Of a stretch of 61,441 nucleotides of DNA, positions 2,606-22,664 are shown one piece after another. Location of the stretch: contig CALXVX010000022.1 in assembly GCA_944392215.1 (NCBI GenBank), forward strand, positions 1-61,441, in the 5' to 3' direction. This DNA comes from an uncultured Alphaproteobacteria bacterium (GTDB taxonomy: Bacteria > Pseudomonadota > Alphaproteobacteria > RF32 > CAG-239). Position 1 is the stretch's first letter; every line of letters begins with the position of its first letter. The notes under the pieces are model-generated. The model searched no databases. It saw only the letters and a list, made by a program, of their open reading frames with translations, and was not told the DNA's origin. The translations under genes and the position numbers were made by a program.

Positions 2606-2606
2606 A

Positions 2607-3339: not shown

Positions 3340-3832
3340 TGATTGGCTGGATTCGCCCTTTGACCCCGAGCAACGCTATAAACACCTGGAAGATATTGAA
3401 CCAGAATTTTGGAAAAAGAAAAAACTGGAAGAAATGTCCCAAAAAGAATGGGAGCTTTTATGCGACGGCTGTGGAAAGTGCTGCCTAAACAAACTTGAAA
3501 TCCGCGGCCACATCAGGTTCACTCGCACGGTTTGCCGATTTTTAGATTGTCAAACCTGCCTCTGCAAAATATATGAACACCGTTTTAAAAAAGTGCCGGA
3601 TTGCCGCAATATAGACTTAGCCGCAGTGAGAGAAACGCCACGGTGGCTGCCCAAAACCTGCGCCTACTGGCTCTTAGACAACGGCCAAGATTTGCCCGAT
3701 TGGCACCCCTTAAAGACTAAAAAAGCAGCCTCTGTCCATGAGGCTGGAATGTCTCTGCAAAAACGAGACGTAATATCAGAAACCGGAGTAAATGACTATG
3801 AAGATTACATTATTGACTGGCCGGACCTCTGA
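3323..3832 (+). CDS. YcgN/UPF0260-family Cys-rich protein, copy 2
   Basis: Same pattern (LCDGCGKCCLNKL...CRFLDCQTCLCKIYEHRFKKVPDC...WLPKTCAYWLL..GQDLPDWHPL). It overlaps copy 1 by 17 nt. Confidence 0.75.
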   Translation: MQTMTDDWLDSPFDPEQRYKHLEDIEPEFWKKKKLEEMSQKEWELLCDGCGKCCLNKLEIRGHIRFTRTVCRFLDCQTCLCKIYEHRFKKVPDCRNIDLAAVRETPRWLPKTCAYWLLDNGQDLPDWHPLKTKKAASVHEAGMSLQKRDVISETGVNDYEDYIIDWPDL

Positions 3833-4505: not shown

Positions 4506-4578
4506 TTTGCAAGTTGATTTTTCAAACTTCATACCCTATATTTATCTTAGTACAACGTAACATAAAAAGGAAAATTGA

Positions 4579-5307
4579 ATGGAAAACAAATCATATTCAC
4601 AAACAGCAGCCTCCGCCTCTATTAGTGAAGGTCTGCGCCAATATATGATAAAAGTTTATAACTTTATGGCGGCGGGATTGTGCCTCACCGCTTTGAGTGC
4701 CTATATTATCGGCAACACCTCTTTACTGGGACTGTTTTTTAACGTTAATCAGCTCGGCCAAGTTACCGGGATGTCCGGATTCGGCTGGTTGATGTTTATC
4801 GCTCCGTTGGTAATGGTTTTTGCCTTTGGCTGGGTACTAAATAGAGGAACATCTGCTCAGGTTCAGGGCTTGTTTTGGGCCTATGCAGCAGTTATGGGAG
4901 CATCTCTGACTCCGATTCTCTTGGCTTATACCGGTGCCAGTGTTGCTAGGGTTTTCCTAATCACGGCCGGCACTTTTGGTGCCATGAGTCTCTATGGCTA
5001 CACCACTAAAAAAGATTTAAGCGGGATGGGCTCTTTCTTGATGATGGGCTTATTTGGCATTATCATTGCCATGATTGTTAATATCTTCATGAAAAGCCCC
5101 GGCGTTGACTATGCTATTTCCATTTTAGCCGTTGGTATTTTTGTTGGCCTGACTGCTTATGATACTCAAAGAATCCGCGATATGTATTATGAAGGAGATA
5201 GTAGCGATATATCCACCAAAAAAGCTATTTCCGGTGCTTTGTCCTTGTATCTTGACTTCATTAACATGTTCATTTACTTATTGCGTTTCTTCGGAGACCG
5301 CAGATAA
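4579..5307 (+). CDS. BAX inhibitor-1/YccA family membrane protein
   Basis: LRQYMIKVYNFMAAGL start, about 7 TM helices, C-terminal DTQRI...Y......A..GAL.LYLDFIN.F..LLR. Confidence 0.85.
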   Translation: MENKSYSQTAASASISEGLRQYMIKVYNFMAAGLCLTALSAYIIGNTSLLGLFFNVNQLGQVTGMSGFGWLMFIAPLVMVFAFGWVLNRGTSAQVQGLFWAYAAVMGASLTPILLAYTGASVARVFLITAGTFGAMSLYGYTTKKDLSGMGSFLMMGLFGIIIAMIVNIFMKSPGVDYAISILAVGIFVGLTAYDTQRIRDMYYEGDSSDISTKKAISGALSLYLDFINMFIYLLRFFGDRR

Positions 5308-6556: not shown

Positions 6557-8614
6557 ATGGCAGAAGAAGTTCAAACAGAACAAAACATTAGAGAACCGAT
6601 TGAAGAAGATGCCGTTTCAGCAGGTAGTGTTCCTAGTGTCAATAATAGCAAAGAAAATTCCTTTGACATGACATACTTGGTTAAGGAACGTTTTGAAATA
6701 AACTACAACTCACCTCTTCCGGATTTGGATGTAAACGGAGCAAAAGCCTATGCTGTAAAAGACAAAATAAACCCGCAACGAGAATTGTTTGCCCTTTTAT
6801 GTGACAATAATTTTCCACCCAGGTTATCAATGCTGCCTTACTTAAAATCCATAGAACATCCAAATTTATTAAAATTAATAGAATACAGTGTTGTTGATTA
6901 TATACCAGAAAAAACCATGAATATGGCATTAATTTACAACCGTCCGACAGGTCCAAAAACATCTCAAATACGGATCAAAGAAAAAATCAGTTTTGAAAGA
7001 TTCAAATCCTTGGTTTTATCTCTTATTTCCGGATGTGAAGCTCTTAAAAGCTATAACCTGACACATCGAGCCATCCGCATGGATAACGTTTTCTTTAAGG
7101 ATGAAGACTGCTCTGAACTTGTTTTGGGAGATTGTGCTGCATCTTTTCCGGCACTATATCAACCCAACGTGTATGAAACCTTAGAAAACATTTTGTGCTT
7201 ACCACAAGGCCGCGGCCAAGGAAGCAGTAGCGATGATATTTATGCCGCAGGCGTAACTTTGCTTGGAATTGTTTTAGAACATGAATTACCCTCAAAATAT
7301 TCCGGACCGGAACTACAAAGACTAAAACTAAAAAAAGGCTCCTTATCCGTTTTGCTAAATGGAGAAAAAATTCCCAATCATTTTTTACCCTTGTTTAAAG
7401 GAATGCTGGATGATAATGCAGAAAGTCGTTGGAATAGTTCTCAAATTTATAATTACCTAGAGGGAAAGACTCCAGCCTTTTCAAACGATTCCTCTGACCG
7501 GTCAATGAGAGCGCTGAGTATTGGTGGAGAAAAATACTATACCGCAAAATCTGCAGCTTTAGCCATGCTTGAAAATCCATCTGAAGGCCTATCAATAATT
7601 AAAAATGGAAAACTCTTAGACTGGATAAAAAACGGCCTAGAGAACGAGAAACTACATAACAAAATTGAGCGAGTAATAAATAGCGACAAAGAGCATGAGG
7701 CGAACCGCTTGCTTTTACCGCAAATCTGCATTTACCTTGACTATAGTTTGCCTCTCAAAAGTGATACTATATACATTTTTCCAAGCGGATTACCGAAAGC
7801 AGTTTTTCATTGTTTAAAAACCGGAAGATCCGTTGAGCCTTTTTACCAAATTTTGGCGGGAGACCTGATAAAAATCTGGTATCAAGAACAACCCTATTTA
7901 CACACGCCTGCCAACAGCAATGAGTTCAGAATATATTTGAATCGCAACACCTACGGCTATGGAATTGACAGAATCATCTACGATTTTGATGATGATCTAC
8001 CATGTACCAGTCCGCTAATAGGTAAAGAATTTGTCAACACACCATCAAAGCTTTTAAAAGCACTGGATTCAAATTATTCAGAAAACAAAGAGGAAAAACC
8101 CTACGACAAGAATATCATCGCCTACCTGCGTTGCAAAATGGGCAAAAAAATCGACGGAGTTTTAACAGATATAAATGCAAATCAAGATGCTCTGCAAATA
8201 TCTGCCGTCATGCGTCTTTATGCCAATATTCAAAATAAGAATGGTCCGGTTCAACTTCTAAACTTAACCAAATGGCTGGTAAAAGCAGCCAAACCGATTA
8301 TAATGAGCTACCACAACACAAAGTATCGAAAATTTTTGGAACAAGAAGCCATAAAAATAGCCAAAAGCGGAAAGATTATAGAACTCTACGAAATCCTTGA
8401 AAACGATGAAGCAAAAAAGAAAGATCGAACAGAATACTCCTCCATTCTGAAAAAAGTAAACATTTTAGTCACCGAACGCAACCGAATATTACAAGGAGGA
8501 CCAAAATTAGATGAAGAGTCCAAAGAGCTGGCCATAAAATTTGGCTCAATTCTTTCTATACTAACCATGCTGGGTTCTTTTGTCCTCAGCATAATTTATT
8601 GGGTATTCAAATGA
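6557..8614 (+). CDS. protein-kinase-like (probable pseudokinase) protein with C-terminal TM anchor
   Basis: AYAVKDK (VAIK-like Lys). HRAIRMDN replaces HRDxKxxN, so the catalytic Asp becomes Ala. Also LGDC (DFG-like) and DDIYAAGVTLLGIVL (subdomain IX). About 350 aa of unknown region follows, then a terminal TM helix LSILTMLGSFVLSIIYWVF. Confidence 0.6.
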   Translation: MAEEVQTEQNIREPIEEDAVSAGSVPSVNNSKENSFDMTYLVKERFEINYNSPLPDLDVNGAKAYAVKDKINPQRELFALLCDNNFPPRLSMLPYLKSIEHPNLLKLIEYSVVDYIPEKTMNMALIYNRPTGPKTSQIRIKEKISFERFKSLVLSLISGCEALKSYNLTHRAIRMDNVFFKDEDCSELVLGDCAASFPALYQPNVYETLENILCLPQGRGQGSSSDDIYAAGVTLLGIVLEHELPSKYSGPELQRLKLKKGSLSVLLNGEKIPNHFLPLFKGMLDDNAESRWNSSQIYNYLEGKTPAFSNDSSDRSMRALSIGGEKYYTAKSAALAMLENPSEGLSIIKNGKLLDWIKNGLENEKLHNKIERVINSDKEHEANRLLLPQICIYLDYSLPLKSDTIYIFPSGLPKAVFHCLKTGRSVEPFYQILAGDLIKIWYQEQPYLHTPANSNEFRIYLNRNTYGYGIDRIIYDFDDDLPCTSPLIGKEFVNTPSKLLKALDSNYSENKEEKPYDKNIIAYLRCKMGKKIDGVLTDINANQDALQISAVMRLYANIQNKNGPVQLLNLTKWLVKAAKPIIMSYHNTKYRKFLEQEAIKIAKSGKIIELYEILENDEAKKKDRTEYSSILKKVNILVTERNRILQGGPKLDEESKELAIKFGSILSILTMLGSFVLSIIYWVFK

Positions 8615-9084
8615 TAAAACCACTAAGAACACAACAACACCCCAAAAAGAAACTCAATTTTCTTCAAAAAGCACTACTTTTGCTTGGGTTAATCATTCTT
8701 GTCATCACAGCATTGCCGGCTATTGTTATTATAATTATTGGACTTTTACCAACAATTACGGTTTTGTTAATAGATTCTAAGAACGTAACCAAATTAACAA
8801 TGGTTGGCTGCTTCAATTTAGCAGGTGTTTTTATTTGTTTGATGAACATCTTTAACCAATTCAATCTTAACCATGCCATTACCATATTAGGAAATGTATT
8901 CAATATCATTATCATGCTGGGGGCAGCTGCTTTGGGAATGATTTTATATTATGAACTACCAAACTTATTTCTCCTAATCTCAAAGGCTTTTGCCCAAAGA
9001 CGTCTCCGCAACATAGATAACAAACTCGAAAAAATAGCGGATGAGTGGGGCAGAGAATGCATTGCGGACGTAGAACAGAAATAG
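8611..9084 (+). CDS. four-TM membrane protein, translationally coupled to the pseudokinase gene
   Basis: ATGA start/stop overlap at 8611-8614. Hydrophobic helices throughout. The ORF track also offers a TTG at 8599. Confidence 0.5.
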   Translation: MIKPLRTQQHPKKKLNFLQKALLLLGLIILVITALPAIVIIIIGLLPTITVLLIDSKNVTKLTMVGCFNLAGVFICLMNIFNQFNLNHAITILGNVFNIIIMLGAAALGMILYYELPNLFLLISKAFAQRRLRNIDNKLEKIADEWGRECIADVEQK

Positions 9085-9114
9085 AAGAGGCCGCGTTTAA
9101 AACGCAGCCTTCCG

Positions 9115-9993
9115 TCAAGCCTTCATGCCTTCAATTGTTTTGGCAATTTTTTTAATTGAATTCAATTCTATTTGCCGCACACGCTCTTTAGAAATATTAT
9201 AAAGTTTGCTCAAATCATCAAGTGTCACGGCTTTCTCGAATAATCTGCGCTTAAATAAGATATCTCTTTCGCGTTTATTTAGGCACACAAGAGCCTTATT
9301 AAAAAGTTCACGGCGATATTTCATCGTTTCGGCATAAGCCAAAACCTCTTCTTGATTGGGCTTCGTATCAGCAATAAAATCCATCCACTCACTGCCATTG
9401 TCAGAAGATGAATCAATCAAAATATTAAGTGAGCCATCATGAGATTTCAAGCGCATATTCATATCTGTCACATCTTGCACGCTGACATCCAAAGATTCGG
9501 CAATGCCATTTAGCACCTTTGGAGAAAGCTCTCTATCATCGGTAACATTAAGTTTATTTTTTATTTTTCGCAAATTAAAAAACAATTTTTTTTGTGCAGC
9601 AGTCGTCCCGATTTTAACCAACGACCACGAGTTTAAGATATATTTTTGGATAGAAGCTTTAATCCACCACAAAGCATAAGTTGAAAACCTAAACCCCTTA
9701 TCCGGTTCAAATTTTTCAATAGCATAAAGAAGGCCTATATTTCCCTCAGAAATCATCTCTGCCGCAGATAGACCATAACCTCTGTATTTGGCAACAACTT
9801 TTACTACCAAGCGTAAATGAGAGGTGACCAAAACTTTAGCTATTTCTGGATTTTTTGTTTTCTGATATTGGACGGCCAGATTGTATTCTTCATCCTGAGC
9901 CAAGATGGGATATTGCCTGATTTTTTGCAAATATCTAACCATGTTAAACTCTGGAGAAAAGTCCGCTCCACCAAGATATTGGACATCATCCAT
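9115..9993 (-). CDS. rpoH: RNA polymerase sigma-32 factor
   Basis: RpoH box AQKKLFFNLRK, plus sigma70 regions 2 and 4 (SHLRLVVKVA, ISKERVRQIE). Confidence 0.9.
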   Translation of the reverse strand: MDDVQYLGGADFSPEFNMVRYLQKIRQYPILAQDEEYNLAVQYQKTKNPEIAKVLVTSHLRLVVKVVAKYRGYGLSAAEMISEGNIGLLYAIEKFEPDKGFRFSTYALWWIKASIQKYILNSWSLVKIGTTAAQKKLFFNLRKIKNKLNVTDDRELSPKVLNGIAESLDVSVQDVTDMNMRLKSHDGSLNILIDSSSDNGSEWMDFIADTKPNQEEVLAYAETMKYRRELFNKALVCLNKRERDILFKRRLFEKAVTLDDLSKLYNISKERVRQIELNSIKKIAKTIEGMKA

Positions 9994-10145
9994 GTTCGTT
10001 TCACTCCTGTTTAAGCATTCAGTCGTTCAACGTACGAGTTCCGGTCCTAAAAAAATCGACGCTTATAGGGTCGCGCTAAATTAGCAAAAGCGCAACCTAT
10101 CCTTTAGTATGGTAGGTATTGAGATTTTCTATTTTGAGTTGCTGT

Positions 10146-11117
10146 TCAGATACTATCTAAAACACCCATTAATTGTTTGAAATCTGCTGGAAAATCAGAT
10201 TCAAAAAACATTTGTTTTTGAGTTTTTGGATGAATAAAGCCGAGGCTTTTAGCGTGCAGGGCTTGCCGTGGAAAATTATTAATAAAATCTCTTTTATCCG
10301 AAGGAATGGCCTTATCCGTAATTTTTTTTGCTTTAACATAGAGCTGGTCACCCACAAGATTACACCCGATTCTGCTCATATGCACCCTGATTTGGTGGGT
10401 TCGTCCGGTTTCAAGATTGCATTTAACAAGAGAGGCAACATTCTTGTAATTTTTTATAGTTTGATAGTGCGTCACGGCATGTTTGCCATTTTTTTGCACA
10501 ACGGCCATTTTCTTGCGATCATAAGGACTACGACCTATATCGGCGTCAATTATACCATTAAGCGGGTTTGGCACCCCAAAAACAATGGCAAAATAGGTCC
10601 TTTCAATGGAATGCTCGGCAAACTGAGCGCATAAATGTTGGTGTGCGGCATCATTTTTTGCCACCACCAGAAGGCCTGAGGTGTCCTTATCAATCCGATG
10701 GACAATTCCGGGACGTTTAACCCCGCCGATGCCCGAAAGATCCTTACAGTGATACAACAAGGCATTGACCAAAGTTTTATCTGGAGCACCCGGAGCCGGA
10801 TGCACGGTCATCCCGGCAGGTTTATTCACTACGATAATATCTTCATCTTCATAAACGATATCAAGCGGAAGATCCTGAGGTTGGGGTTCGGCCTCAACCG
10901 CGGGGGGGATAAGAATTTGATAAACATCCCCCTCTTTTACCTTAAAAGAATTGTCACCAATGGTATCTTCGTCACACGTAACATTACCCAAGGCAATAAG
11001 GCGTTGCACTTGGGAACGGGAAACATCGGCAAAACAATCGCTTAAAAACTTATCGATTCTTTTCCCCTTATAATCTTTATTAACCATTGGTGTGGTATAA
11101 ATAAGCGTATCAGACAT
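10146..11117 (-). CDS. rluD: RluA-family 23S rRNA pseudouridine synthase (RluD-like)
   Basis: N-terminal S4 domain (RIDKFLSD...SRSQVQRLI) and catalytic HRIDKDTSGLLVVAK motif. Confidence 0.9.
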   Translation of the reverse strand: MSDTLIYTTPMVNKDYKGKRIDKFLSDCFADVSRSQVQRLIALGNVTCDEDTIGDNSFKVKEGDVYQILIPPAVEAEPQPQDLPLDIVYEDEDIIVVNKPAGMTVHPAPGAPDKTLVNALLYHCKDLSGIGGVKRPGIVHRIDKDTSGLLVVAKNDAAHQHLCAQFAEHSIERTYFAIVFGVPNPLNGIIDADIGRSPYDRKKMAVVQKNGKHAVTHYQTIKNYKNVASLVKCNLETGRTHQIRVHMSRIGCNLVGDQLYVKAKKITDKAIPSDKRDFINNFPRQALHAKSLGFIHPKTQKQMFFESDFPADFKQLMGVLDSI

Positions 11118-11192
11118 TTTTAAGGCCTAAAAAGTTAAAAACTTAAGGCTTATAATAGAGACAAAAAACAAACTTGCAAGCGAGATTTAGGC

Positions 11193-11468
11193 ATGGATAA
11201 ACTCAAACTAATCAAAACCGTCGTTGTTGTTTTAACTTTTTTGCTGGTTTTTGGTATCCTGACAGCATTAGGCAGTGTCTACAAAAAAGTATCAGCCCCG
11301 GCAAAAGAGATTGAAAATGTCAATTTGCAACAACCAACCGGCAGCAGTATAGAAGATTTTAAGGTAGAAAACGGCAAGCTTTATCTTTTGGTCAAATATG
11401 GCGGCGAAAACGACCGTATTTTAGTCATAGAACCAGGCAAAAAAGCGGCAGAAATAAAAATTAATTAA
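11193..11468 (+). CDS. small single-pass membrane protein (DUF6476-like, from memory)
   Basis: N-terminal TM helix and a short beta-rich tail (KLYLLVKYGGENDRILVIEPG). Its position beside rluD/rpoH resembles a small conserved alphaproteobacterial family. Unverified. Confidence 0.4.
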   Translation: MDKLKLIKTVVVVLTFLLVFGILTALGSVYKKVSAPAKEIENVNLQQPTGSSIEDFKVENGKLYLLVKYGGENDRILVIEPGKKAAEIKIN

Positions 11469-11480
11469 AAGGAGGCTGAA

Positions 11481-12329
11481 ATGGCAGAAGCAGATTCTCA
11501 AGACGAATTTGACAGGCTTTTAGACGACTTCATCTCTCAGCAATTGGCTGATGCGGAAGACAATCTCACGGACCTTGCCGAGCTGAAAGAAAGCGGCAAA
11601 CCGGCTCCTCAATACCCCGAAGATGAGGCCGAAATCATTCAAAACCTCTATAAAGAAGAACGCCAGCTATATGACGCCTACCACAATTTTCGCAACGCGA
11701 TAAATGCTATTGCCAAAAATGCCAACATGGAACCGCCGCATTTTGAATTTGGCGCCAGATATATTTACCCTCGTTTTCGCCCCACCAGAACCAAACAACT
11801 CAACCAAGATATTTTCAGTGGTTGGGAGCTATTAGCCATGGCGCAACCGGTCAGACTGTCATCTCTGCCGGCCAACGCCTCGGATGAGCAAATTTTAAAT
11901 TTTGCCGAAAAAACAACCGATGAGAACTTGCAATGCGCTCTAATTTCTTATGTCGAAATCTTAATAGAGCTGGATGGTTGCGAAATTGCCTACAATATGC
12001 GCAAAGCCAAAGCCGAAAAGCGCAAAATAGAAAAAGAGATTTTTGAGGAACACCAACGCCGCAAAGAGCGAATGAAAAAGTATATTGAAGCCATTGAGGC
12101 TCAGCATTTTCCGATAGATGCGGAAAGGCTGGTCAACAACTTTTTCAAAAGCGTGCGTAAAGATCCCGAAGGCGCACAAAAGATATTGGAAACGAATCCT
12201 GCCACCTTTGCGCCCATTCAGGTAGAAAAGATTCCGCCACGCTTTTTTGGGCTTATAAAAACCAAACCGGAAGATGGAATCAGGGTAAATAAAGAAATCG
12301 GAAAGTTTTTGAAGAACTTGAAGGTCTAA
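11481..12329 (+). CDS. hypothetical protein, acidic N-terminus, Lys-rich C-terminus
   Basis: Long uninterrupted ORF with RBS-like aaggagg 9 nt upstream. No recognisable motif. Confidence 0.5.
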   Translation: MAEADSQDEFDRLLDDFISQQLADAEDNLTDLAELKESGKPAPQYPEDEAEIIQNLYKEERQLYDAYHNFRNAINAIAKNANMEPPHFEFGARYIYPRFRPTRTKQLNQDIFSGWELLAMAQPVRLSSLPANASDEQILNFAEKTTDENLQCALISYVEILIELDGCEIAYNMRKAKAEKRKIEKEIFEEHQRRKERMKKYIEAIEAQHFPIDAERLVNNFFKSVRKDPEGAQKILETNPATFAPIQVEKIPPRFFGLIKTKPEDGIRVNKEIGKFLKNLKV

Positions 12330-12407
12330 ATGGTACAAAAATATAGACAAAATTCAAATTTATGATAAGATATAAATAATATACTTTCACAAAGAAGGGA
12401 ATTAACC

Positions 12408-14060
12408 ATGGCAAAAGAATCCACCTCTCCCCGCAAAGAAGCAGAAACAGCCGCCAGAGGCGGAAGAAAAAGCGGAGAAGAAAACACCAGAAGGACAAGA
12501 ACAGAAGCCAATAGAATCTCTGCTTCTACACCAACATCCGGCGCGGGAAGCACGCCTGCCGGCAGTGGAGAAAGCGGCGCAAGCGGCAGTTCCACCCCGC
12601 AGCAAAATGATGGAAATTCTGGGCAAAAACCCGTCACTGTTAATCAAGCAAATCCCCAACCTGAAAAAGAACCGCAAAACAGTGACGACAAAGAAATCAG
12701 CATAGATGAAAACAAGCCTCTCAACGAATTATCCGTTGAAGAACTGAAAGAACGACAGGAAAAAACAACAGACCCAGAAGAAAGACAAAAATATCAAGAA
12801 CTAATTGATCAAAAAAACAAAGCACCTGAAGCCGGAGAAATCAAGAAAACAGATGACCCCGATACTCCAAAAGAAGACGACGATAAATTTGATATTCAAC
12901 AGGGTGATTTTATCGAGTTTTTAATGAAAGACGTTGTTTTAGCCTCCGCCGCCTGGGCCGGCAAAAAAGTTTCCGGCCAAATTGGGCTTTTGACTTATCG
13001 CGGCCTTTCCTGGATGTATCACACCGCAGATGATAAACTATTTACGCCGGCAGGAAAAGAAATCTCAGAAGCCTGGGATAACTTAAAGAAAAACACCAAA
13101 GAAGCCTTTAGAACAGTAGAACAATACCAAGTAAAAGATACCCTAAACGGCAAAGACGATACCACTGATTTTGCTCACGAGGTAATAAAAGAACACAATA
13201 AAGTTATAGATGAGGCCTTAAAAAGCCCCAAAAGGATTGAAGCTTTTGGTCATTTTGCCGAAGCCGTATTCGGCGGAAATTTTGAGGCAGGAAAATACAC
13301 CCAAAATGGTCATCTTGTTTGGTTTGACAAAGAAACCCGCACCACTATTCCGCTTGAAGGAAAGTCCATAGAAAATATAGTCAAAATGGCTCAAGAAACT
13401 TCTAAAGCCATAGATGCTTCAGACAAAACTCCGGAAGAAAAAGCTTCCCTAAAAGAAACAAGAGCAAAAGAATTGGCAATAATTGTCGGAGATTACACCC
13501 TGCTTGAAAGTCAAAAAAACATCTTCATGTCCAACATGGCAACCGCCACACTTTTGCAAATGAAAGCAGAAAATAAAGATTATAAATACTCAAAAGAAGA
13601 TCTTGAGACGATGAAAAACCGCGCCGCCATAACCTTTTTTACCGAACTGAGAAAAATACGGAATGGCCAAAGCCAATTCAAAACTGTTGAAGAATTCTTA
13701 GAAGCCAGCGGCAAAGCTGTCCAAGCTGCATATAAAAATATAGAAAAAGGTCATTATATTGAAAGAGGTAAAATACCTCTTGCCAATGCAGATTTAGTTC
13801 TGCTCAACAACCTCAACACATCGCAATGCCAAGAAAACCCTCAAGATATGATGACAGAAGCTTTGCAATATAGTGAAACCATGAGGAAACTACAAAAAAG
13901 CTATGAAATTGCAACAGATTCCGCAACCGTTGCTGAAGCGACCCAAAAAGCCCACGAGCAAAACACCAATAGGCCAAAAGACAAAGGCAAAACCAGCGAA
14001 GACAGCAGAAAACAGGAGCCCCCTATCAAACCAAAGTTAAATGAGGGAACTTCTCGATGA
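12408..14060 (+). CDS. hypothetical 550-aa protein with disordered N-terminal third
   Basis: Long ORF. Low-complexity S/G/T/P, then a D/E/K-rich N-terminal region, then a helical body and a basic tail (..RPKDKGKTSEDSRKQEPPIKPKLNEGTSR). No recognisable motif. Confidence 0.55.
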   Translation: MAKESTSPRKEAETAARGGRKSGEENTRRTRTEANRISASTPTSGAGSTPAGSGESGASGSSTPQQNDGNSGQKPVTVNQANPQPEKEPQNSDDKEISIDENKPLNELSVEELKERQEKTTDPEERQKYQELIDQKNKAPEAGEIKKTDDPDTPKEDDDKFDIQQGDFIEFLMKDVVLASAAWAGKKVSGQIGLLTYRGLSWMYHTADDKLFTPAGKEISEAWDNLKKNTKEAFRTVEQYQVKDTLNGKDDTTDFAHEVIKEHNKVIDEALKSPKRIEAFGHFAEAVFGGNFEAGKYTQNGHLVWFDKETRTTIPLEGKSIENIVKMAQETSKAIDASDKTPEEKASLKETRAKELAIIVGDYTLLESQKNIFMSNMATATLLQMKAENKDYKYSKEDLETMKNRAAITFFTELRKIRNGQSQFKTVEEFLEASGKAVQAAYKNIEKGHYIERGKIPLANADLVLLNNLNTSQCQENPQDMMTEALQYSETMRKLQKSYEIATDSATVAEATQKAHEQNTNRPKDKGKTSEDSRKQEPPIKPKLNEGTSR

Positions 14061-14545
14061 AAAAAGTCTACAAAATTTTTAGGTTTACCCTCATCGGTTT
14101 TGTTTGGACCTATCTGTTTTTGGTTTTAACCAACCACATAATGTTCCGGTTGTGGAACTTTAACTTTATGTCATTTCGCAGTTGGAACCTGTTTTTTGGT
14201 TTTTTCCATACAGATTGGGCACTGAAAACAAGAGATGATTACATTTTTTTACTAATGCTTTTTGCTCTGCCTTTCTTATGGATTTTAGGCTGGTTAAAAG
14301 TCTTAAAAATAGACTACTTAAGCATTTTTCTTTATCCAATTAATGCTTATAACCACTACATAATCAATAAATATGGCCACGATTCCTCAAGGATTGTTTT
14401 GAAAAACCTAAAGTCCAGCCAAAAAATGATAGAAGAGATAAAAAGCAAAATAGAATCTATAAGACCAGCCAAAACCAAAGAGGTTAGCAACATTCGAGCA
14501 GAAGTGCAAAAACAATTAGAAAAACTAAATCAATCCAAACACTAA
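14057..14545 (+). CDS. two-TM Trp-rich membrane protein (paralogous N-domain, short form)
   Basis: ATGA overlap with the upstream stop. Its N-terminal about 80 aa align without gaps to the N-terminus of the next gene. Confidence 0.55.
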   Translation: MKKVYKIFRFTLIGFVWTYLFLVLTNHIMFRLWNFNFMSFRSWNLFFGFFHTDWALKTRDDYIFLLMLFALPFLWILGWLKVLKIDYLSIFLYPINAYNHYIINKYGHDSSRIVLKNLKSSQKMIEEIKSKIESIRPAKTKEVSNIRAEVQKQLEKLNQSKH

Positions 14546-14604
14546 ACAGTTATTAACCAATTTTGTGCTAAAATGCAAAATAAAAACATTGGAGAGCCAA
14601 GCAT

Positions 14605-15855
14605 TTGAAACCGCTTTTAATTTTAATACGAATAGCCCTTGTTGGTGTTTTCTGGAGCATTTTGTTCTTAGAAGGCGTTCGTGTTATTATGCTCACCAAC
14701 TGGCATTTTGATATTTTACGTCTGGACCACTGGCTGTATGCTTGGAATTTATGGCTTTCCGGTTGGGTTATTGATGACCCTAAAGAATGGGCCTTTATCC
14801 TGATAATCTTGACATTTATTCCTGTTTGGCTAACCGGATGGACTGCCTTAAGTCTTATACATTGGGGAAAAATTTTTGCCAATATTTTGATGATCCCGCT
14901 TAAACTTTTCAATAAAATATTTGAAAAACAAGTAAAAAAAATTGCCTCCACAGCCAGCGTCAAAGTTGTAAAAAAGAAAAAATCATACAAAGAGATCAGG
15001 CCTCGCAGCATCCGCCCTCCCCTAGAGGAAAGTGCGTATACCCTGCCAGCCGACAGAAAAGCAGCATTATCCGGTATTGCCCCTAAAAGCGCACCTATTT
15101 CCAAACCGGCAACCAGCATCACCAAAGAAGTTGATGCCCCGGTTGAATTTAGCCACTCACTATTCAAATTCGATGATGACGACAACAGCGGATTTGATTT
15201 TGATTTATTTGACGATTCTCCTAAAGAAGAAACAAAACAAGAAGCTGTTCCGACAAAAGAAACCAAAAAAACGGATTCTAAATCAGCGCCCAAACAACCG
15301 AAAGATGACAGCCGCAACAAAAATAATTTAAAGAGACCTTCACTCCCCCGTGGCAGTACCAACTCCACTTTTGAAGTTCTCAAACAAAAAGGATATGAAG
15401 TTATCACTGGCGCCACCATAAAAAGTACACTTATAGATTTTATAGGTGTTTCCAGCACCCAAATTTGCCTTTGCTTAAATGATAAGGAGCCGGGAGATTG
15501 GCTGGCTGATGAAGAGCGTTTCAACGATGAGGAGCCTTTGTGGTTTTCTGAAAGTTCACACAGAATTTCTCCTGTCAGAAAAATAGATATTGCTCGCTTA
15601 ATTTTAACCGACAAACTAGCCGAAGCAGAGATGTCCTTCAAAGTAGAAGCCTATGTTATTGAGCAAATTGGCAATATAATCAACGCAGAAGACATGTTTG
15701 ATATTTGGGATGATATGAACATTCATGTCACCAGAATTGACAGAGGAACCCCAAAAGAAATAAAATTATTTAATAAAGCCCTGGAAGAAGCCGAAGGTAA
15801 GATTGATAAGGCCGAATTTGACAAAGTTAGAAAACTAATTCGTAGTATTGCATAA
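14605..15855 (+). CDS. two-TM Trp-rich membrane protein with disordered linker and C-terminal globular domain
   Basis: TTG start with GGAGAG 8 nt upstream. The N-domain is paralogous to 14057-14545. K/D/E-rich linker (FKFDDDDNSGFDFDLFDD), then a C-terminal domain of about 170 aa with no recognised family. Confidence 0.55.
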   Translation: MKPLLILIRIALVGVFWSILFLEGVRVIMLTNWHFDILRLDHWLYAWNLWLSGWVIDDPKEWAFILIILTFIPVWLTGWTALSLIHWGKIFANILMIPLKLFNKIFEKQVKKIASTASVKVVKKKKSYKEIRPRSIRPPLEESAYTLPADRKAALSGIAPKSAPISKPATSITKEVDAPVEFSHSLFKFDDDDNSGFDFDLFDDSPKEETKQEAVPTKETKKTDSKSAPKQPKDDSRNKNNLKRPSLPRGSTNSTFEVLKQKGYEVITGATIKSTLIDFIGVSSTQICLCLNDKEPGDWLADEERFNDEEPLWFSESSHRISPVRKIDIARLILTDKLAEAEMSFKVEAYVIEQIGNIINAEDMFDIWDDMNIHVTRIDRGTPKEIKLFNKALEEAEGKIDKAEFDKVRKLIRSIA

Positions 15856-15867
15856 AAAGAGGAATAG

Positions 15868-18126
15868 ATGGCAGTAGAAAAAAAAGGAGAAGAGTGGGAA
15901 GAATATAACAGTGCCGTTCGCTGGATGGTAATAACTGTTATTATATCCACTCTCATAACCATATTTTTAGCGTTGGTTTCAATGCCTTTAGGATATCTTA
16001 TCGGCACAGGTATTTCAAAAGAAAGCTTAGGGGATGTTTCCCGCTTTTTTGACCTTGTTTTCAATAAGCCAGGCTATCTCTACTCTCGTTACTGGAATTG
16101 GATGAAACAACTTTTTAGCTACCACGGTCCTTTTTCAGTGAGCTTATGGGTTCCTATTTTACCTTTTTTCAGTTTTCCGACAGGTTTAATCATCGGAGCA
16201 GTAACCAATCCCTATAGATTTCAATCAAACATTCATGGCTCTGCCCGCCTGGCGACAGAAAAAGATATCAAAAAAATGGAGCTTTTGGGGTTCGATGGTT
16301 TTTGCCAAGTTGTCGGCAAATTCAACAACAAGCTTTTGCTGTTGAAAGAAACGCTTTCCACGCTTTGTTGCGCACCTCCGGGAACCGGTAAAACTGCGGG
16401 AGTTGTTGTCCCCACAATTTTTCATTCACCGACCTTGAGCATTATCGTAAACGACCCCAAGCCGGAATTGTGTTTTCAAACCTCCGGTGCCAGAGCCAAG
16501 GTTGGTCCGGTTTTTATCATCAACTGGGGTATGGAAGATAATCCAGCCGAAGGCATATATTACCCAAGCTGGAATCCTCTTTCTCCCGGTGCGGTACCGG
16601 CGCCTGGACCTTCCAGAGATATGTATGTAGATTCCATGTGCAAGGTTTTAGTAGAAGACCCCAAAGGAGGAGCAGACCCTCACTGGTCCACCACCGGTCG
16701 TGCGGCCCTAACCGGCTTTATCCACTTTATCGTTTCCAAATGTGAAAAAGCGCGAGCCAATGACTACTTTATCGGCCGAGTTTATGAAGGCAAGTTAGAC
16801 GAAGAAGATAAAAAGGTTCTGGAAGGCTACTATTTGGAAATGAATGATCCTGCAGCCGCCAGAGCTCTTCAAAATTTAAGAAACAACACCCTAAACATAG
16901 ACAACTATTTACCCATTGGTACCTGGGCTTTGTTGCCGGAAAAATGGATTGGGCGAGAAGCCTGCATAGCCATGATTTTGGAGTGGATTACAGAGGCACA
17001 AATTAAACAATCTCAGGATATCAAACGCCGTATGGATGAAGGCGACCAAATGGCGGCCATGGCAGACCCCATGAGAGATTTGTTGGAGGAAGCCATTGAA
17101 GAGGCTCGTAAATTTGGCTACACGCAACGCTGTATCGTTGAGTTGAGCCAGTTAAGCTCCATGCCCGACAAAGAAAGAGGTTCTGTTCTTTCAACCGCTT
17201 TTGCAGGCATCAACATCTTCAAAAACTCCGCCGTAGTGGCCCGCACAAGTTTCAGCGATTTAGCTTTCAAAGATTTACGCGGACTAAAAGACCCCATTAC
17301 CGGAGAATTTAAGCCTATTTCCGTTTATCTTTCGGTAAACCAGGTAGATGCCAGAGCTTTGAGTGTAATTTCAGGAACATTCATTGACCTGATGTCCTCT
17401 TATCTGATAGCAAATCCACCAAAATTTAAGAATCCGACCGACGGCCAGATGGGTCCCTACTCCTGCCTATTTGTACTAGACGAGTTTCCGACCATGCCCA
17501 AACTACGAGCCGTTATCGACGGGCCGGCAGTCGGACGTGGCCAAAAAGTATCATACTTGCTGATTGGCCAAGATTTGGGCCAAATATCCGGTAAATATGG
17601 TAAAGATGATCTCGAAACGGTTATCTCCACAACAGCCTGTAAAGTTATCTTGTCCCAAAACAACGAGCAAACAGCCCAACGTTTCTCTAAGATGATTGGC
17701 AACAAGACTGTTCAAACAACATCTTATTCAAAGAACGAAGGTGGATTCGGTAAAGGCGTAAACCCCTTTGCAAAGAATGTAAGCTACCAATTGCAAGGTG
17801 TTTCGGTTATATCTACAACACAACTCTTAAGCTTGCCAATGCTAAAACAAGTTGTCTTGATGCAAAGTTACATCGACAGACCAATCATGGCAGATTCTCC
17901 TCGTTGGTATTTGGATAAAAAGATGAAAGCCCTGCGCAACCTTCCGCCGGCACCAAATGTTCCTGACTGGATTGTTGCTCAAAGAGAAGATATTAACGAT
18001 GATATGTTAGCCAAGCTGGGCATTGATTATGACCCAAACGAAGATTTTGATGATTCCGAATTTGCAGAAGATGAAGAATACGATGAATCTTCCGAGAACA
18101 AGCCGACAGAACAGACATCTCAATAG
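15868..18126 (+). CDS. type IV secretion coupling protein (VirD4/TraG family ATPase)
   Basis: Two N-terminal TM helices, the HGSARLA motif, Walker A CCAPPGTGKTAGVVVPT followed by IIVNDPKPEL, Walker B-like LFVLDEFP, and an acidic C-terminal tail (DFDDSEFAEDEEYDESSE). Confidence 0.85.
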   Translation: MAVEKKGEEWEEYNSAVRWMVITVIISTLITIFLALVSMPLGYLIGTGISKESLGDVSRFFDLVFNKPGYLYSRYWNWMKQLFSYHGPFSVSLWVPILPFFSFPTGLIIGAVTNPYRFQSNIHGSARLATEKDIKKMELLGFDGFCQVVGKFNNKLLLLKETLSTLCCAPPGTGKTAGVVVPTIFHSPTLSIIVNDPKPELCFQTSGARAKVGPVFIINWGMEDNPAEGIYYPSWNPLSPGAVPAPGPSRDMYVDSMCKVLVEDPKGGADPHWSTTGRAALTGFIHFIVSKCEKARANDYFIGRVYEGKLDEEDKKVLEGYYLEMNDPAAARALQNLRNNTLNIDNYLPIGTWALLPEKWIGREACIAMILEWITEAQIKQSQDIKRRMDEGDQMAAMADPMRDLLEEAIEEARKFGYTQRCIVELSQLSSMPDKERGSVLSTAFAGINIFKNSAVVARTSFSDLAFKDLRGLKDPITGEFKPISVYLSVNQVDARALSVISGTFIDLMSSYLIANPPKFKNPTDGQMGPYSCLFVLDEFPTMPKLRAVIDGPAVGRGQKVSYLLIGQDLGQISGKYGKDDLETVISTTACKVILSQNNEQTAQRFSKMIGNKTVQTTSYSKNEGGFGKGVNPFAKNVSYQLQGVSVISTTQLLSLPMLKQVVLMQSYIDRPIMADSPRWYLDKKMKALRNLPPAPNVPDWIVAQREDINDDMLAKLGIDYDPNEDFDDSEFAEDEEYDESSENKPTEQTSQ

Positions 18127-18136
18127 GAACCAAAAG

Positions 18137-18691
18137 ATGTGGGAATGGTCTAAGTCACGAGAGAAGAATACCGACCAAAAATCCTTAAAAAGCCATTTGG
18201 GGAATCTTCTTTTTTCACCTGAAACACCGTCTTCCGCTCCGAAAATTCCATCTCCTGAACAAATGAAAAATTATCTTGTATCGGAGATAAAAAAAGAGAA
18301 CCTTTCTTGCCTAGAGCTAAAAAAATGCGCTTATCATCCACAAACTTGGGATGAAATGACCAACAGTTCAAAACAGTACCTGAAGATAAGAAAAACCTTT
18401 CTCAAACTAATAGGCTATTCCGCACAAGAAGAATGCAAAAAAATTGGTTTCAACAAAGAAGATATAGAATTATTAAAAAACAAAATCTCGCCGGAAAACT
18501 ACAACACACACATAAAAATCCCGCTTGAGTTTGGCGGAAAGTTAGATATGGATAACCTTTGCCTTATAAAAACTCATCCCCTGCATGATCAAATTCATCA
18601 TCTGATAGAAATTCAAATCAGTTGTGGTTTTTTGCAAAAATATAAATTTATTTACATTCCTTGGTTTGAAGGAAAAATCTACCATGATTAA
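18137..18691 (+). CDS. HNH/His-Me-finger nuclease-like protein (candidate toxin)
   Basis: C-terminal THIKIPLEFGGKLDMDNLCLIKTHPLHDQIHH fits H-x3-P-x3-GG-x5-NL-x5-H-x2-H-x3-HH. The start is taken at ATG 18137, 10 nt after the T4CP stop. Confidence 0.6.
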   Translation: MWEWSKSREKNTDQKSLKSHLGNLLFSPETPSSAPKIPSPEQMKNYLVSEIKKENLSCLELKKCAYHPQTWDEMTNSSKQYLKIRKTFLKLIGYSAQEECKKIGFNKEDIELLKNKISPENYNTHIKIPLEFGGKLDMDNLCLIKTHPLHDQIHHLIEIQISCGFLQKYKFIYIPWFEGKIYHD

Positions 18692-19130
18692 TTCTTTGTT
18701 GTCCAAAGCTCAAAACACAAAACATTTTATCAGTTTTTCACCTATGGGGTCAGATTCCATAGAGCAAACAAACCAAGAGCTCATAAGCTCCGGCAACCCG
18801 CCTCTCCCATCGGATTTTTGCGATTTTTTGAGCTTGTGCGACGGAATTTACTATGATGGATTAGAGCTTTTTGGCACCAAAGAACACCCCCGCCCAACCA
18901 AAGAATATATTTTTACCAATATAACAAAAGCTAACAAGCCTTTTTCGGAATATAGCTTCTTCTCACAGAAACTCATCATTGGAAGCATGTCTGAAAACTT
19001 TATTATATACGATTCCAAAAACAAGTTGTTTGCCATCACAGACAGAATAAACCTATGCTCCCAAATAGAATTTTCTTCTTTTGAGGAGTTGTTATCTTAC
19101 CTTCTGCGCCATTGTGAAATAGGGCTTTAA
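18684..19130 (+). CDS. SMI1/KNR4 (SUKH)-family immunity-like protein
   Basis: [27 protein letters not shown] is the typical SUKH core. The ATG overlaps the upstream stop (ATGATTAA). Confidence 0.65.
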
Positions 19131-20478: not shown

Positions 20479-21048
20479 CTATTTTATACCTGCACCCAAA
20501 AGCAAGTTGCGGGTTTCAAACAAAGGCAGCCCAACAACGCCCGAATAAGAACCTATCATTTTGCGCACCAACGCGGCCAATTTACCCTCTATCTTATAGC
20601 CCGCAGCACCAACCCATTCTTTACTTTTCACATAGTCCTCAATTTCCTGCTCAGACATTTTTTTCATTAATATCCTAGTAGAATTAAGCCGTACAGAAGC
20701 TTTTCCATGAGAACTAATAACACAAACAGCACTCAAAACTTTATGAGCTTTTCCGGAAATAAGCCGCATAACCCTCGTTTGTTCCTCATCACTATGGGCC
20801 TTTTGAATGATTTGAGACCCTGCAACGATAATGGTATCACAAGCCAAAACTACTTTTCCGGGATACTTTTTTGCAACATTTTGAGCTTTTTCCAAAGCCA
20901 TTCTCTTAACATAAGCCGTTGGCTTTTCATTTTTTTTAGGAGTTTCATCAATATCTGCCGGCTCAATCAAAGAAGGCACCATATCTATTTGTTCAAGCAA
21001 CAGCTTCCGTTGCGGCGAACCGGAAGCCAAAATAAAATTCTTAGCCAT
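20479..21048 (-). CDS. maf: Maf-like nucleoside triphosphate pyrophosphatase
   Basis: ILASGSPQRKLLLEQ, DE.P, ACDTIV and GAAGYKIEG motifs. Confidence 0.88.
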   Translation of the reverse strand: MAKNFILASGSPQRKLLLEQIDMVPSLIEPADIDETPKKNEKPTAYVKRMALEKAQNVAKKYPGKVVLACDTIIVAGSQIIQKAHSDEEQTRVMRLISGKAHKVLSAVCVISSHGKASVRLNSTRILMKKMSEQEIEDYVKSKEWVGAAGYKIEGKLAALVRKMIGSYSGVVGLPLFETRNLLLGAGIK

Positions 21049-21072
21049 TCACTAACCTCAATTTTGGAATCT

Positions 21073-21108
21073 TAAAAAGCAAAAAAGCGCTTAAAAGACA
21101 AGCGCTTT
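21073..21108 (-). terminator. intrinsic terminator after dksA
   Basis: On the minus strand: AAAGCGCTT-gtctttt-AAGCGCTTT followed by a T-run. Confidence 0.7.
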
Positions 21109-21113
21109 AATGT

Positions 21114-21542
21114 TTATTTTACATCATCATCGTAGGTTTTTTCCATGCGCTCATGGCGTTCCTGAGCTTCAACCGACAAAGTTGCCACCGGACGAACTTC
21201 CAAACGCTCGATTCCGATAGGATCTCCGGTTTCTTCGCAATAGCCATATACACCATCTTCGATTCTTTTTAAGGCTTCATCAATTTTAGAGATAAGCTTA
21301 CGAGCCCTATCACGAGTACGGAGTTCCAAAGCCTTATCAGCTTCCAGAGAGGCACGATCAATCTGATCAGGCTGATTAAGCCCACCCTCTCTCAGATCAT
21401 TAAGGGTATCGGTAGCCTGCCCTATCAACGATTTTTTCCAATTAAGGAGCTTCTGACGGAAATACTCCAACTGCATTTCATTCATATACTCTTCATCGGC
21501 AGAGGGTTTATAATCCGGGGGAAGAATGACTGTGTTTTCCAT
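21114..21542 (-). CDS. dksA: RNA polymerase-binding transcription factor DksA
   Basis: Coiled-coil with a DxxDxA tip (DQIDRASLEAD) and C-terminal YGYCEETGDPIGIERLEVRPVATL. This is a Cys-poor finger variant. Confidence 0.88.
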   Translation of the reverse strand: MENTVILPPDYKPSADEEYMNEMQLEYFRQKLLNWKKSLIGQATDTLNDLREGGLNQPDQIDRASLEADKALELRTRDRARKLISKIDEALKRIEDGVYGYCEETGDPIGIERLEVRPVATLSVEAQERHERMEKTYDDDVK

Positions 21543-21654
21543 AAATTTAACTCCTTAACATCAGAACATTTTTTAATTGTGATACATATAGCAGGTAAAA
21601 TATAAAATTCCATAAAAAAAGCAAGTAAAATTCACGTTTTATCACCTATTAGAA

Positions 21655-22104
21655 CTAAGATGTGAGTTTGGCTAGTTCCACCTCCACTCTAAGTTCTATT
21701 TCTGCCATAATTTCTTGCAGTTTTGGGTCGCTCGATTCTGCCTGATGTTCCTTAACCATTCTGGCTGTTTCGATCAAATTATCCTTAGACATATATCCAA
21801 GCAGCAAAGCATCTCTGATTTCTTCAAGTTTTTCCAAAAGAGAATAGCCTCTTTTGATGAGTTTTTTTCTGATTTCCCTTTCTTCTTCGCTACCCACCAT
21901 CTGAGTGGCAAATATGGCATCTGTCACTGATATACCTGATGTTGCACCGACTTGCTGAGATTTTTTACTCATAGTTTCATTAAGATAAGTCGAAAAACTC
22001 TCCCCACCGGACGTTTTTTTTATATTTTTTCCGGCATTAATATCATTAGTCTTGCCAATATCATTGACTTTTATCATGCCACACTCCTCTATTGAAAAGT
22101 CCAA
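21655..22104 (-). CDS. fliX: class II flagellar assembly regulator FliX-like protein
   Basis: C-terminal ...DPKLQEIMAEIELRVEVELAKL and the central LLEKLEEIRDALLLG match my recollection of FliX. The position next to dksA also fits, as in Caulobacter. Confidence 0.6.
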   Translation of the reverse strand: MDFSIEECGMIKVNDIGKTNDINAGKNIKKTSGGESFSTYLNETMSKKSQQVGATSGISVTDAIFATQMVGSEEEREIRKKLIKRGYSLLEKLEEIRDALLLGYMSKDNLIETARMVKEHQAESSDPKLQEIMAEIELRVEVELAKLTS

Positions 22105-22664
22105 ACAATAGTATTATCCCCATCGTCTTTACAACTATCCGCCGCTTTTTCAAGAGTGATGGGCAAAGCATCTTCATCTCCAAATTTTACACCATCAATA
22201 GGCAACTTAAATAGCTTATTATTTATTTTTATTTGAAAAAGATCTGTCCCCTGAGTATTGCTCCAAGTCAATTGGCTCAAATTCATACAAGCGCGCAAAG
22301 AAAGCTGTTTGAACGTTATATCAAAAAATTCATCACCTAAAGAAGATGTCTTAATTTCAACTTCCCCATTAAGTCTATGAACAATTTTTCCATTTACCAA
22401 CATTTGAGAAGGAATGAGCAGGTCTTCTTTAAATTTAGCTGGTGTCATCTTAGAAGAAGATAGTTCAGAAAAATCTCCTTCCAGTCTATATCTGGTTACA
22501 ATATTTTTTTGAATTTCCTGCACTTCTTGGGATACCATATTAAGTCGAAATACCTCAAACATATTTCCGACCAAACCGATAATGGAGATTGTTAAAACCG
22601 TCACAACAGATATAGCGGCGATAGCCTCTACCATTGTTACACCCTTTTGATTTGAATTTATCAT
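22089..22664 (-). CDS. type IV prepilin-like protein
   Basis: The class III signal MINSNQKG|VTMVEAIAAISVV has Glu at +5 after the Gly. A hydrophobic alpha-1 helix follows, and there are two C-terminal Cys residues. It overlaps the fliX start by 16 nt. Confidence 0.65.
   Translation of the reverse strand: MINSNQKGVTMVEAIAAISVVTVLTISIIGLVGNMFEVFRLNMVSQEVQEIQKNIVTRYRLEGDFSELSSSKMTPAKFKEDLLIPSQMLVNGKIVHRLNGEVEIKTSSLGDEFFDITFKQLSLRACMNLSQLTWSNTQGTDLFQIKINNKLFKLPIDGVKFGDEDALPITLEKAADSCKDDGDNTIVWTFQ

Follow-up and report, generated by a model that had tools for sequence, protein, structure and literature searches.

Type IV coupling proteins (T4CPs) have usually been studied on plasmids or in pathogens, beside the channels of their type IV secretion systems (T4SSs). 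The rvh system of Rickettsiales has scattered chromosomal genes, duplicated VirB components are one of its hallmarks, and the substrates of VirB/D4 systems carry positively charged C-terminal signals. Relaxases of the MOBC family reportedly belong to the PD-(D/E)xK superfamily. Here we describe a T4CP gene in a stretch of 61,441 nucleotides from an uncultured Alphaproteobacteria bacterium (assembly GCA_944392215.1, contig CALXVX010000022.1), the whole of which is referred to as the window. The gene lies in a plus-strand block (g0 to g7), and its product is a core protein of uncultured alphaproteobacteria that are widespread in human and animal guts, with conservation as tight as that of a sigma factor. 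We favour, at about an even chance, the reading that the block is the substrate-receptor (coupling) module of a toxin-delivering VirB/D4 system whose genes are scattered over the chromosome, those for the channel lying elsewhere in the genome. A preliminary description of this DNA had left the choice between a recruitment or toxin-delivery module serving a T4SS encoded elsewhere and a stand-alone membrane ATPase system; we lean towards the former on the strength of VirB8 and VirB9 genes found near the module in one relative, and of plasmid T4CPs that end virB operons.

The coupling protein and its relatives

Seven plus-strand open reading frames (ORFs), g1 to g4, the T4CP, g6 and g7, had been described in the block, and the ORF listing confirmed their positions and their spacings of 78, -4, 59, 12, 10 and -8 nt, with the start of g3 overlapping g2 by 4 nt and that of g7 overlapping g6 by 8 nt. 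A further small gene, g0, lies behind an AAGGAGG site and stops 12 nt before g1. Because g0 is co-conserved with the others, the block is better counted as eight genes, as follows (TM, transmembrane; AF2, AlphaFold2):

11193..11468, plus strand: g0, a 91-residue single-TM protein, DUF6476-like, ending 12 nt 5' of g1
11481..12329, plus strand: g1, 282 residues, soluble, acidic and all-helical (AF2 model, no fold match)
12408..14060, plus strand: g2, 550 residues, hypervariable (orthologue alignment)
14057..14545, plus strand: g3, 162 residues, a membrane protein and truncated paralogue of the g4 anchor (BLASTP against g4)
14605..15855, plus strand: g4, 416 residues, TTG start, with a two-TM anchor, an acidic linker and a predicted NERD-like domain (AF2, Foldseek and Pfam)
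15868..18126, plus strand: the T4CP (VirD4/TraG family), 752 residues (Pfam and motifs)
18137..18691, plus strand: g6, 184 residues, with a pyocin/colicin-type HNH motif, a putative DNase toxin (motif and profile level)
18684..19130, plus strand: g7, 148 residues, a SUKH/YrhA-family immunity protein (NCBIfam NF038335)

The T4CP scored above the gathering cut-offs of three Pfam domains: T4SS-DNA_transf (E 9e-55, 186.7 bits against a cut-off of 20.1), TraG-D_C (2e-22, 80.0 bits against 22) and TrwB_AAD_bind (7e-17, 61.9 bits against 20.5). Two hydrophobic segments (residues 15-50 and 91-113) correspond to two N-terminal TM helices, and the protein further displays the motif HGSARLA at residue 123, Walker A CCAPPGTGKTAGVVVPT at residue 167 (with GTGKT at 172-176), a Walker B region LFVLDEFP at residue 534, an all-alpha domain and an acidic tail. 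These domains and motifs uphold its earlier assignment to the VirD4/TraG type. It fell below every NCBIfam VirD4/TraG equivalog cut-off (129 against 250 for CD1115, 123 against 728 for VirD4 PRK13897, and 107 against 674 for IncP TraG), and a search of PDB sequences gave nothing below E 0.18, the value of its best match, TrwB. By domain criteria, we regard the protein as a genuine T4CP, divergent and placed in no curated equivalog.

The nearest plasmid T4CPs (Sphingosinicella, Erythrobacter, Microvirga and Thalassospira) were 33-35% identical to the window protein (E 1e-78 to 1e-103), and all of them close virB2-B4-B8-B9-B10-B11 operons on alphaproteobacterial megaplasmids. Since these nearest annotated relatives all terminate virB operons, the window T4CP descends from a VirB/D4 machine. 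Close relatives with the T4CP inside a canonical virB operon had been named in the preliminary description as evidence against a distinct module; such T4CPs were found at about 35% identity only, which we take as ancestry and not as refutation, and no homologues of g1-g4 were found on the virB plasmids that bear them.

Searches by tblastn with VirB2-B11 of four plasmids, and with the VirB8 and VirB9 of a relative (locus L108, below), found no homologue in the 61-kb window, and neither did a Pfam scan of 30 of its other ORFs. The window is thus devoid of detectable T4SS channel genes, as had been claimed, and the T4CP can rightly be called an orphan, both here and in its 10-kb flanks. The pilin-like genes that are present (22089-22664 and 55549-56481, both minus strand) are of type IVb type, not conjugative pilins; one encodes PilS_N with a G|VTMVE prepilin motif and the other DUF805 fused to PilS_N/Bundlin.

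VirB genes do accompany the module in L108 (ERZ808240 NODE-68), a 131-kb contig of 53% GC whose T4CP is 63% identical to that of the window, with the gene order g4-paralogue, g4, T4CP, g6, g7. At 2-5282 on the minus strand, 4.5-9 kb upstream of this module, lie two VirB8 genes (Pfam 3e-21 and 2e-10), a 71-residue ORF of VirB7 size, and a VirB9/CagX gene (2e-12) whose product has a C-terminal SPOR (peptidoglycan-binding) domain. The next gene, where VirB10 would be expected, encodes a TM protein of at least 699 residues with beta-flower/DUF3659 repeats and runs off the locus.

An exhaustive search of representatives returned a continuum of T4CPs at 36-56% identity in chromosomal contexts. The closest of these, L085 (56%), has a gene for a ribbon-helix-helix (RHH) protein followed by a g4-like gene, the T4CP, and g6-like and g7-like genes, and in L099 an RHH protein likewise precedes g4. 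L086 and L088 (50-52%) contain lone T4CPs amid housekeeping genes. In seven loci (L087, L090, L091, L092, L093, L094 and L095, at about 9000-12200 in each), a pentapeptide-repeat protein of 330-441 residues abuts a chromosomal T4CP on its 5' side, often with overlapping stop and start codons; these T4CPs are 36-43% identical to the window protein, form a separate clade in a rough neighbour-joining tree, and have housekeeping flanks. We found no description of such a pentapeptide-repeat/T4CP two-gene module in the literature. Pilin-like or prepilin-peptidase genes adjoin the T4CPs of several distant relatives (L085 13437-13880; L086 9503-9958; L091 10630-11334), a proximity that may be fortuitous or point to a functional connection with type IV filaments.

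Conservation, synteny and selection

A scan of one genome per species identified at least 181 species with a relative of the T4CP, of which the best 80 (75-98% identity) were fetched as loci. All 80 come from gut or rumen metagenome-assembled genomes (MAGs), including 'Ca. Scatocola faecigallinarum' and 'Proteobacteria bacterium CAG:495', and homologues at 82-97% identity are recorded under names such as 'Azospirillum sp. CAG:260', 'Azospirillum sp. 47_25' and 'MAG: Alphaproteobacteria bacterium'; we take these genomes to belong to the GTDB order RF32. Every locus of sufficient length has the order rpoH and rluD on the minus strand followed by g0, g1, g2, g3, g4 and the T4CP, and the genes 3' of this conserved block are variable and of housekeeping type. 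The fixed synteny and housekeeping flanks indicate that the locus is a vertically inherited core region, and on these grounds the mobile-element reading was rejected. The co-conservation of gene order is also far above chance. This linkage, on which the coherence of the proposed operon had been made to depend, is universal from g0 to the T4CP wherever the locus is long enough, and partial for g6 and g7, found in 27 and 26 of the 80 loci. Constancy is greatest for the pair formed by g4 and the T4CP: in each of the 80 species loci, as in L085, g4 is the gene immediately before the T4CP, and a metagenome scan with the g4 alignment, which gave 80 loci, showed it directly preceding the T4CP in all 67 that extend past its end. 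In most of the 72 loci whose sequence extends beyond the 5' end of g1, g0 precedes that gene, with a tblastn match in 71 loci, although the ORF listing misses it in 7; it may be an operon member or an ancestral neighbour of rluD.

Identities to the window protein (medians across the 80 species loci), together with the ratio of nonsynonymous to synonymous substitution rates (dN/dS) against the closest relatives of the window, were as follows:

DksA: median identity 88.7%
T4CP: median identity 82.6% (range 75-98%); dN/dS 0.023-0.027
RpoH: median identity 78.8%; dN/dS of rpoH 0.04
RluD: median identity 66.4%
g4: median identity 60%; dN/dS 0.075
g1: median identity 50.5% (72 loci); dN/dS 0.06
g0: median identity 46.7%
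g6: median identity 41%
g7: median identity 39.5%
g3: median identity 34%; dN/dS 0.09-0.10
g2: identity about 16-35%; dN/dS 0.17-0.20, the maximum of the block

The T4CP is more conserved than RpoH in 60 of 68 loci. Constraint at this housekeeping level, in a protein with relatives in at least 181 species, argues that the T4CP is a functional component of a machine, not a relic. At the other extreme, comparison of the window with its very close relatives L001 and L002 gives a synonymous divergence (dS) of 0.8-1.9 in g2, g3, g4 and g6 against 0.23-0.57 in the flanking genes, a 2-5-fold difference that suggests either recombinational exchange of alleles or old balanced alleles. Fast evolution of g2 and high dS in g2-g4 and g6 are as expected for proteins that face competitors, and support the toxin-delivery reading. 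In L008 (2772-8224), g1 and g2 are tandemly duplicated (282 and 533 residues, each twice), which is either real or an assembly artefact.

The surroundings of the block in the window agree with the preliminary description: minus-strand genes adjoin it on both sides, rpoH and rluD to the left and yacG-rng-maf-dksA to the right. Cumulative GC skew reaches its minimum near 27-28 kb, and rho, mnmE and parB lie to the right of this point, so the block is transcribed head-on to replication, as had been proposed. The 30 other ORFs of the window scanned with Pfam were all housekeeping genes. Apart from one A/T palindrome inside g4, no oriT-like inverted repeat of 12 nt or more was found in or around the block, and promoter and terminator scans were uninformative. 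Upstream, near rpoH, a plus-strand gene at 6557-8614 encodes a 685-residue protein-kinase-like protein (Pkinase 4e-6; weak PADLOC match to MkoA, 5e-10) and overlaps the start of a second plus-strand gene (8599-9084), for a 161-residue multi-TM protein of no known family. A 339-residue protein with a staphylococcal-nuclease (SNase) domain is encoded directly downstream of parB (38867-39886, plus strand), and L095 has a comparable SNase gene close to its T4CP (20987-21910, minus strand).

Partner proteins and candidate cargo

The AF2 model of g4 (predicted local distance difference test score, pLDDT, 69 overall and 75-93 in ordered parts) begins with a helical membrane domain of two strongly hydrophobic segments, followed by a basic stretch from which the C-terminus is predicted to be cytoplasmic. 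A disordered linker of about 130 residues with conserved acidic/aromatic motifs leads to a C-terminal core of alpha-beta-beta-beta-alpha-beta topology at residues 255-355 (helix 255-261, strands 265-272, 275-282 and 286-293, helix 323-340, strand 346-355; pLDDT mostly 75-93). In Foldseek, the best PDB matches of g4 were the nickase N.BspD6I, the restriction-like endonuclease (RLE) domain of R2, and Card1, with probabilities of 0.93-0.96 at E values of about 1e-2, and the best matches to viral proteins included some named restriction endonuclease, DUF2726 and PD-(D/E)XK; even the best matches overall reached E values of only 3e-3 to 1e-2, with a probability of up to 0.99. The Pfam NERD family matched 23 of 46 orthologues below threshold (best E 0.0022), the window g4 itself giving no match. 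Residues D278, D293 and E295 are invariant, with the spacing D-K-E in place of (D/E)-x-K, and K294 is replaced by R in L085. Single-sequence and profile searches of the PDB with g4 returned noise only, and no sequence similarity to relaxase families was found in Pfam or NCBIfam. Three weak but concordant lines of evidence thus point to a NERD-like C-terminal domain of restriction-endonuclease fold.

The smaller membrane protein, g3, aligns with residues 1-103 of g4 (BLASTP E 2e-10); it is hydrophobic at residues 6-30 and 60-85 and has a short helix at its C-terminus. In relatives its slot is occupied by a full-length g4 paralogue, so g3 is a truncation. All four proteins upstream of the T4CP had been called unrecognisable; this no longer applies to g4, NERD-like by AF2, Foldseek and Pfam, or to g3, a paralogue of the g4 anchor by BLASTP, and still describes g1, which has no PDB match, and g2, which has no family.

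The all-helical AF2 model of g1 is confident (pLDDT 89) and has no fold match in the PDB (best E 0.95). No family was found for g1 in Pfam, NCBIfam or PADLOC, its sequence and profile gave noise only against the PDB, and its orthologues showed only weak coiled-coil-type Pfam matches (the H-NS N-terminal domain in 14 of 51, best E 0.01); we propose that it is a cytosolic adaptor. The Pfam match of g0 to DUF6476 (E 1.9e-4) is below the cut-off. In the species loci, the g2 slot is always filled by an ORF of 437-755 residues. Mean column identity in the g2 alignment is 16%, with D167 invariant and I169 nearly so, and the protein comprises a disordered N-terminal region, one conserved amphipathic motif (about residues 160-190) and a polar, basic C-terminal tail. 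Most of these tails end with G(G)R; their median charge is +3, and in 59 of 63 orthologues R or K occurs within the final three residues. Orthologues of g2 matched nothing in Pfam, and its sequence and profile gave noise only against the PDB. We propose g2 as secreted cargo.

Downstream of the T4CP, g6 has an invariant N-terminal MWEWS and the motif PEN..H.K.P..FGG.....N..L....P.H...H, in which P119-E120-N121, H125, K127, P129, F132, G134, N140, L143, P148, H150 and H154 are invariant (alignment A4). Searching the PDB with a profile of 18 orthologues gave a single match, in which residues 132-171 align with the HNH motif of the DNase of pyocin AP41 at a weak E of 0.24, and no Pfam family matched at E <=1 in the window protein or in 10 orthologues. 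The description of g6 as HNH-like therefore stands at the level of the motif, through this profile match, and finds no counterpart among the HNH and Tox-HNH families of Pfam. For g7, the comparable label of SUKH-like is secure: although its match to Pfam SMI1_KNR4 is weak, it passes the cut-off of the NCBIfam YrhA model NF038335 (69.7 bits against 55, E 2.4e-19, residues 17-144 of 148). We judge the toxin/immunity tail after the T4CP to be real. The gene g6 also occurs in L085, L099, L104 and L108, and g7 always accompanies it.

Of 14 relatives whose g6 was examined, all of them outside the 75-98% clade of the window, 10 have a longer protein ending ...SVYAGFLESTFE.I.QRS..GR-COOH, and a further 2 have a variant tail that also ends in GR. 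The g2-like proteins of loci with a tailed g6 have G/R-rich ends too. The GR tails of g6 and g2 resemble the signals of VirB/D4 substrates, and we infer from this likeness that they are a candidate signal.

Readings of the block and described systems

In the reading that we favour, a T4CP hexamer would be anchored in the membrane together with the two-TM proteins g4 and g3, and on the cytoplasmic side the acidic linker and NERD-like domain of g4 would form, with soluble g1, a docking and adaptor platform. The cargo would be hypervariable g2 and, where present, the putative HNH DNase g6, which the SUKH protein g7 would keep inactive in the producer. The cargo may be recognised by way of basic, unstructured tails that close its C-terminus with G(G)R and then handed to the channel, the proposed output being contact-dependent antagonism of neighbouring gut bacteria. 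In keeping with such a scheme, the HNH/SUKH pair remains linked to the T4CP even in lineages where T4CP identity has fallen to 56%. Several observations weigh against it. No VirB gene was found within 10 kb of the T4CP in 159 of 160 loci retrieved with T4CP and g4 queries, nor in any of 11 loci looked up for more distant relatives. Even at L108, a DEAD-box helicase and an esterase separate the VirB genes from the module, and the locus showed no VirB4 or VirB11 and, by Pfam, no VirB10. In the clade of the window g6 lacks the GR tail, and about two thirds of the species loci have neither g6 nor g7, so toxin delivery cannot be the sole conserved role. In addition, nuclease-type g4 and g6 fit a DNA-centred role equally well, and a T4CP that couples effectors would not usually be more conserved than RpoH.

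The same absence of channel genes from all but one of the 160 loci and from the 11 loci of more distant relatives would be expected if the block were a stand-alone, T4SS-independent inner-membrane machine, in which a domesticated T4CP motor and the tethered NERD-like g4/g3 process or translocate DNA or protein, with g1 and g2 as accessories. Its possible roles include the uptake or export of DNA and the handling of incoming DNA. We consider this unlikely, though a serious contender: the constant neighbour g4 is of putative nuclease fold and the optional partner g6 a putative HNH nuclease, the T4CP is under housekeeping-level constraint, and the separate clade of pentapeptide-linked T4CPs amid housekeeping genes makes it seem that T4CPs have repeatedly been recruited to chromosomal two-gene modules. 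Pentapeptide-repeat proteins are DNA mimics in Qnr and MfpA. A related and rather doubtful possibility is that the clade has no type IV channel of any kind, its T4CP having been domesticated as a housekeeping-grade inner-membrane motor with a NERD-like or, in the sister clade, a pentapeptide partner. To our knowledge, however, no T4SS-independent function of a T4CP has been demonstrated; VirB8 and VirB9 lie near the L108 module, conservation of the D...(D/E)xK triad in g4 is imperfect (with R in place of K294 in L085), and a toxin neutralised by a SUKH protein implies delivery to other cells.

A restriction-endonuclease-like g4 immediately 5' of a T4CP, preceded in L085 and L099 by an RHH protein, a typical relaxosome accessory type, also recalls a mobilisation (MOB) module. 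Here g4 would be a relaxase of restriction-endonuclease type, like those of the MOBC family (CloDF13 MobC, pAD1 TraX), that, with its own T4CP, feeds chromosomal DNA to a T4SS in cis or trans. We hold this to be improbable, since g4 is membrane-anchored, unlike known relaxases, and resembles no relaxase family in Pfam or NCBIfam, the block has no oriT-like inverted repeat in or around it, the locus is core and syntenic and not on a mobile element, and g6, g7 and g2 are left unexplained. The co-occurrence of two nuclease-type proteins with a DNA-translocase-type ATPase could alternatively indicate anti-phage or anti-plasmid defence, with an FtsK/HerA-type motor sensing or reeling in DNA, NERD and HNH nucleases destroying it, the SUKH protein as a safety catch and g2 as a sensor. 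Fast evolution of g2 and the raised dS in g2-g4 and g6 fit this scheme, and some NERD proteins reportedly occur in defence contexts; yet no PADLOC model matches g0-g7, the T4CP is clearly of VirB/D4 descent, and a universal, syntenic locus under very strong purifying selection is unlike a defence island, which makes the scheme highly improbable. Decay of a T4CP from an integrated conjugative element, beside unrelated lineage-specific genes that form no functional unit, would account for the lack of channel and relaxase genes nearby. That idea commands next to no credence: with ORFs intact in at least 80 species and genes overlapping or tightly spaced in a fixed order, and judging from T4CP identity above that of RpoH and dN/dS of 0.023-0.027, it is effectively refuted.

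If the T4CP does feed a scattered VirB system, gut commensals outside Xanthomonadales would possess T4SS-based killing, with a new receptor architecture and a candidate G(G)R signal; in the absence of any channel, it would be the first coupling protein with a role independent of a T4SS. On either reading, g4 and the T4CP offer a defined two-protein core, and the link of the T4CP to the HNH/SUKH pair offers a handle on cargo recognition. Our literature search found nothing that links RF32-type gut alphaproteobacteria with T4SSs, or pentapeptide or NERD proteins with T4CPs, nor did it find a description of g1, g2, the TM-NERD pair (g3/g4), the core-genome status or the candidate GR tail. None of g1 to g4 belongs to a coupling complex described so far.

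Set beside the P-type VirB/VirD4 systems and rvh of Rickettsiales (with RvhD4), the T4CP shares the Pfam family, N-terminal TM helices, Walker A and B motifs and an acidic tail, and the locus, like rvh, is alphaproteobacterial, chromosomal and vertically inherited; the duplication of VirB8 in L108 is a further likeness. Unlike its counterparts there, the window T4CP does not lie beside virB8-virB11 but in an operon of its own with g0-g4. The X-T4SS of Xanthomonadales (X-Tfe/X-Tfi) similarly links a VirD4-type T4CP to toxin/immunity pairs and has a C-terminal recognition element, as is proposed here. The window locus differs in its small HNH toxin, its SUKH immunity protein, the separation of the T4CP from channel genes and the extra partners g1-g4, and no Pfam family, hence, on the assumption that Pfam includes an XVIPCD model, no XVIPCD domain, was detected in g6 or g2. 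The YrhA-family protein g7, the H..P..FGG..N..H..H beta-beta-alpha-Me motif of g6 and the 8-nt overlap of their genes recall SUKH polymorphic toxin systems, in which HNH-fold nuclease toxins are paired with SMI1/KNR4-YrhA immunity proteins, whereas g6 is short, conserved and not polymorphic, is fixed beside a T4CP, and lacks the usual N-terminal trafficking domains (T5SS, T6SS, T7SS, Rhs).

In the MOBC arrangement of CloDF13 (relaxase MobC and T4CP MobB), a protein of restriction-endonuclease fold also stands beside a dedicated T4CP while the channel is encoded elsewhere; the window locus is in contrast core-genomic, has a membrane-anchored g4 and no oriT-like repeat, and shows no detectable sequence similarity. 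The Dot/Icm coupling complex (DotL-DotM-DotN-IcmSW-LvgA) is alike in that the T4CP directly follows a protein with N-terminal TM segments and a cytoplasmic domain (DotM, compared with g4), and in its small soluble adaptors. The window T4CP, however, is of the VirD4/TraG branch and has no counterpart of the long C-terminal extension seen in DotL, and the cytoplasmic domain of g4 is NERD/restriction-endonuclease-like; a type IVB identity of g4 and the T4CP as DotM and DotL was rejected because no DotM was among the 50 Foldseek PDB matches listed and no DotL-type extension is present. By analogy, the operon would work most like a DotL-DotM-type coupling complex combined with the toxin-delivery logic of the X-T4SS, achieved without the DotM fold or XVIPCD.

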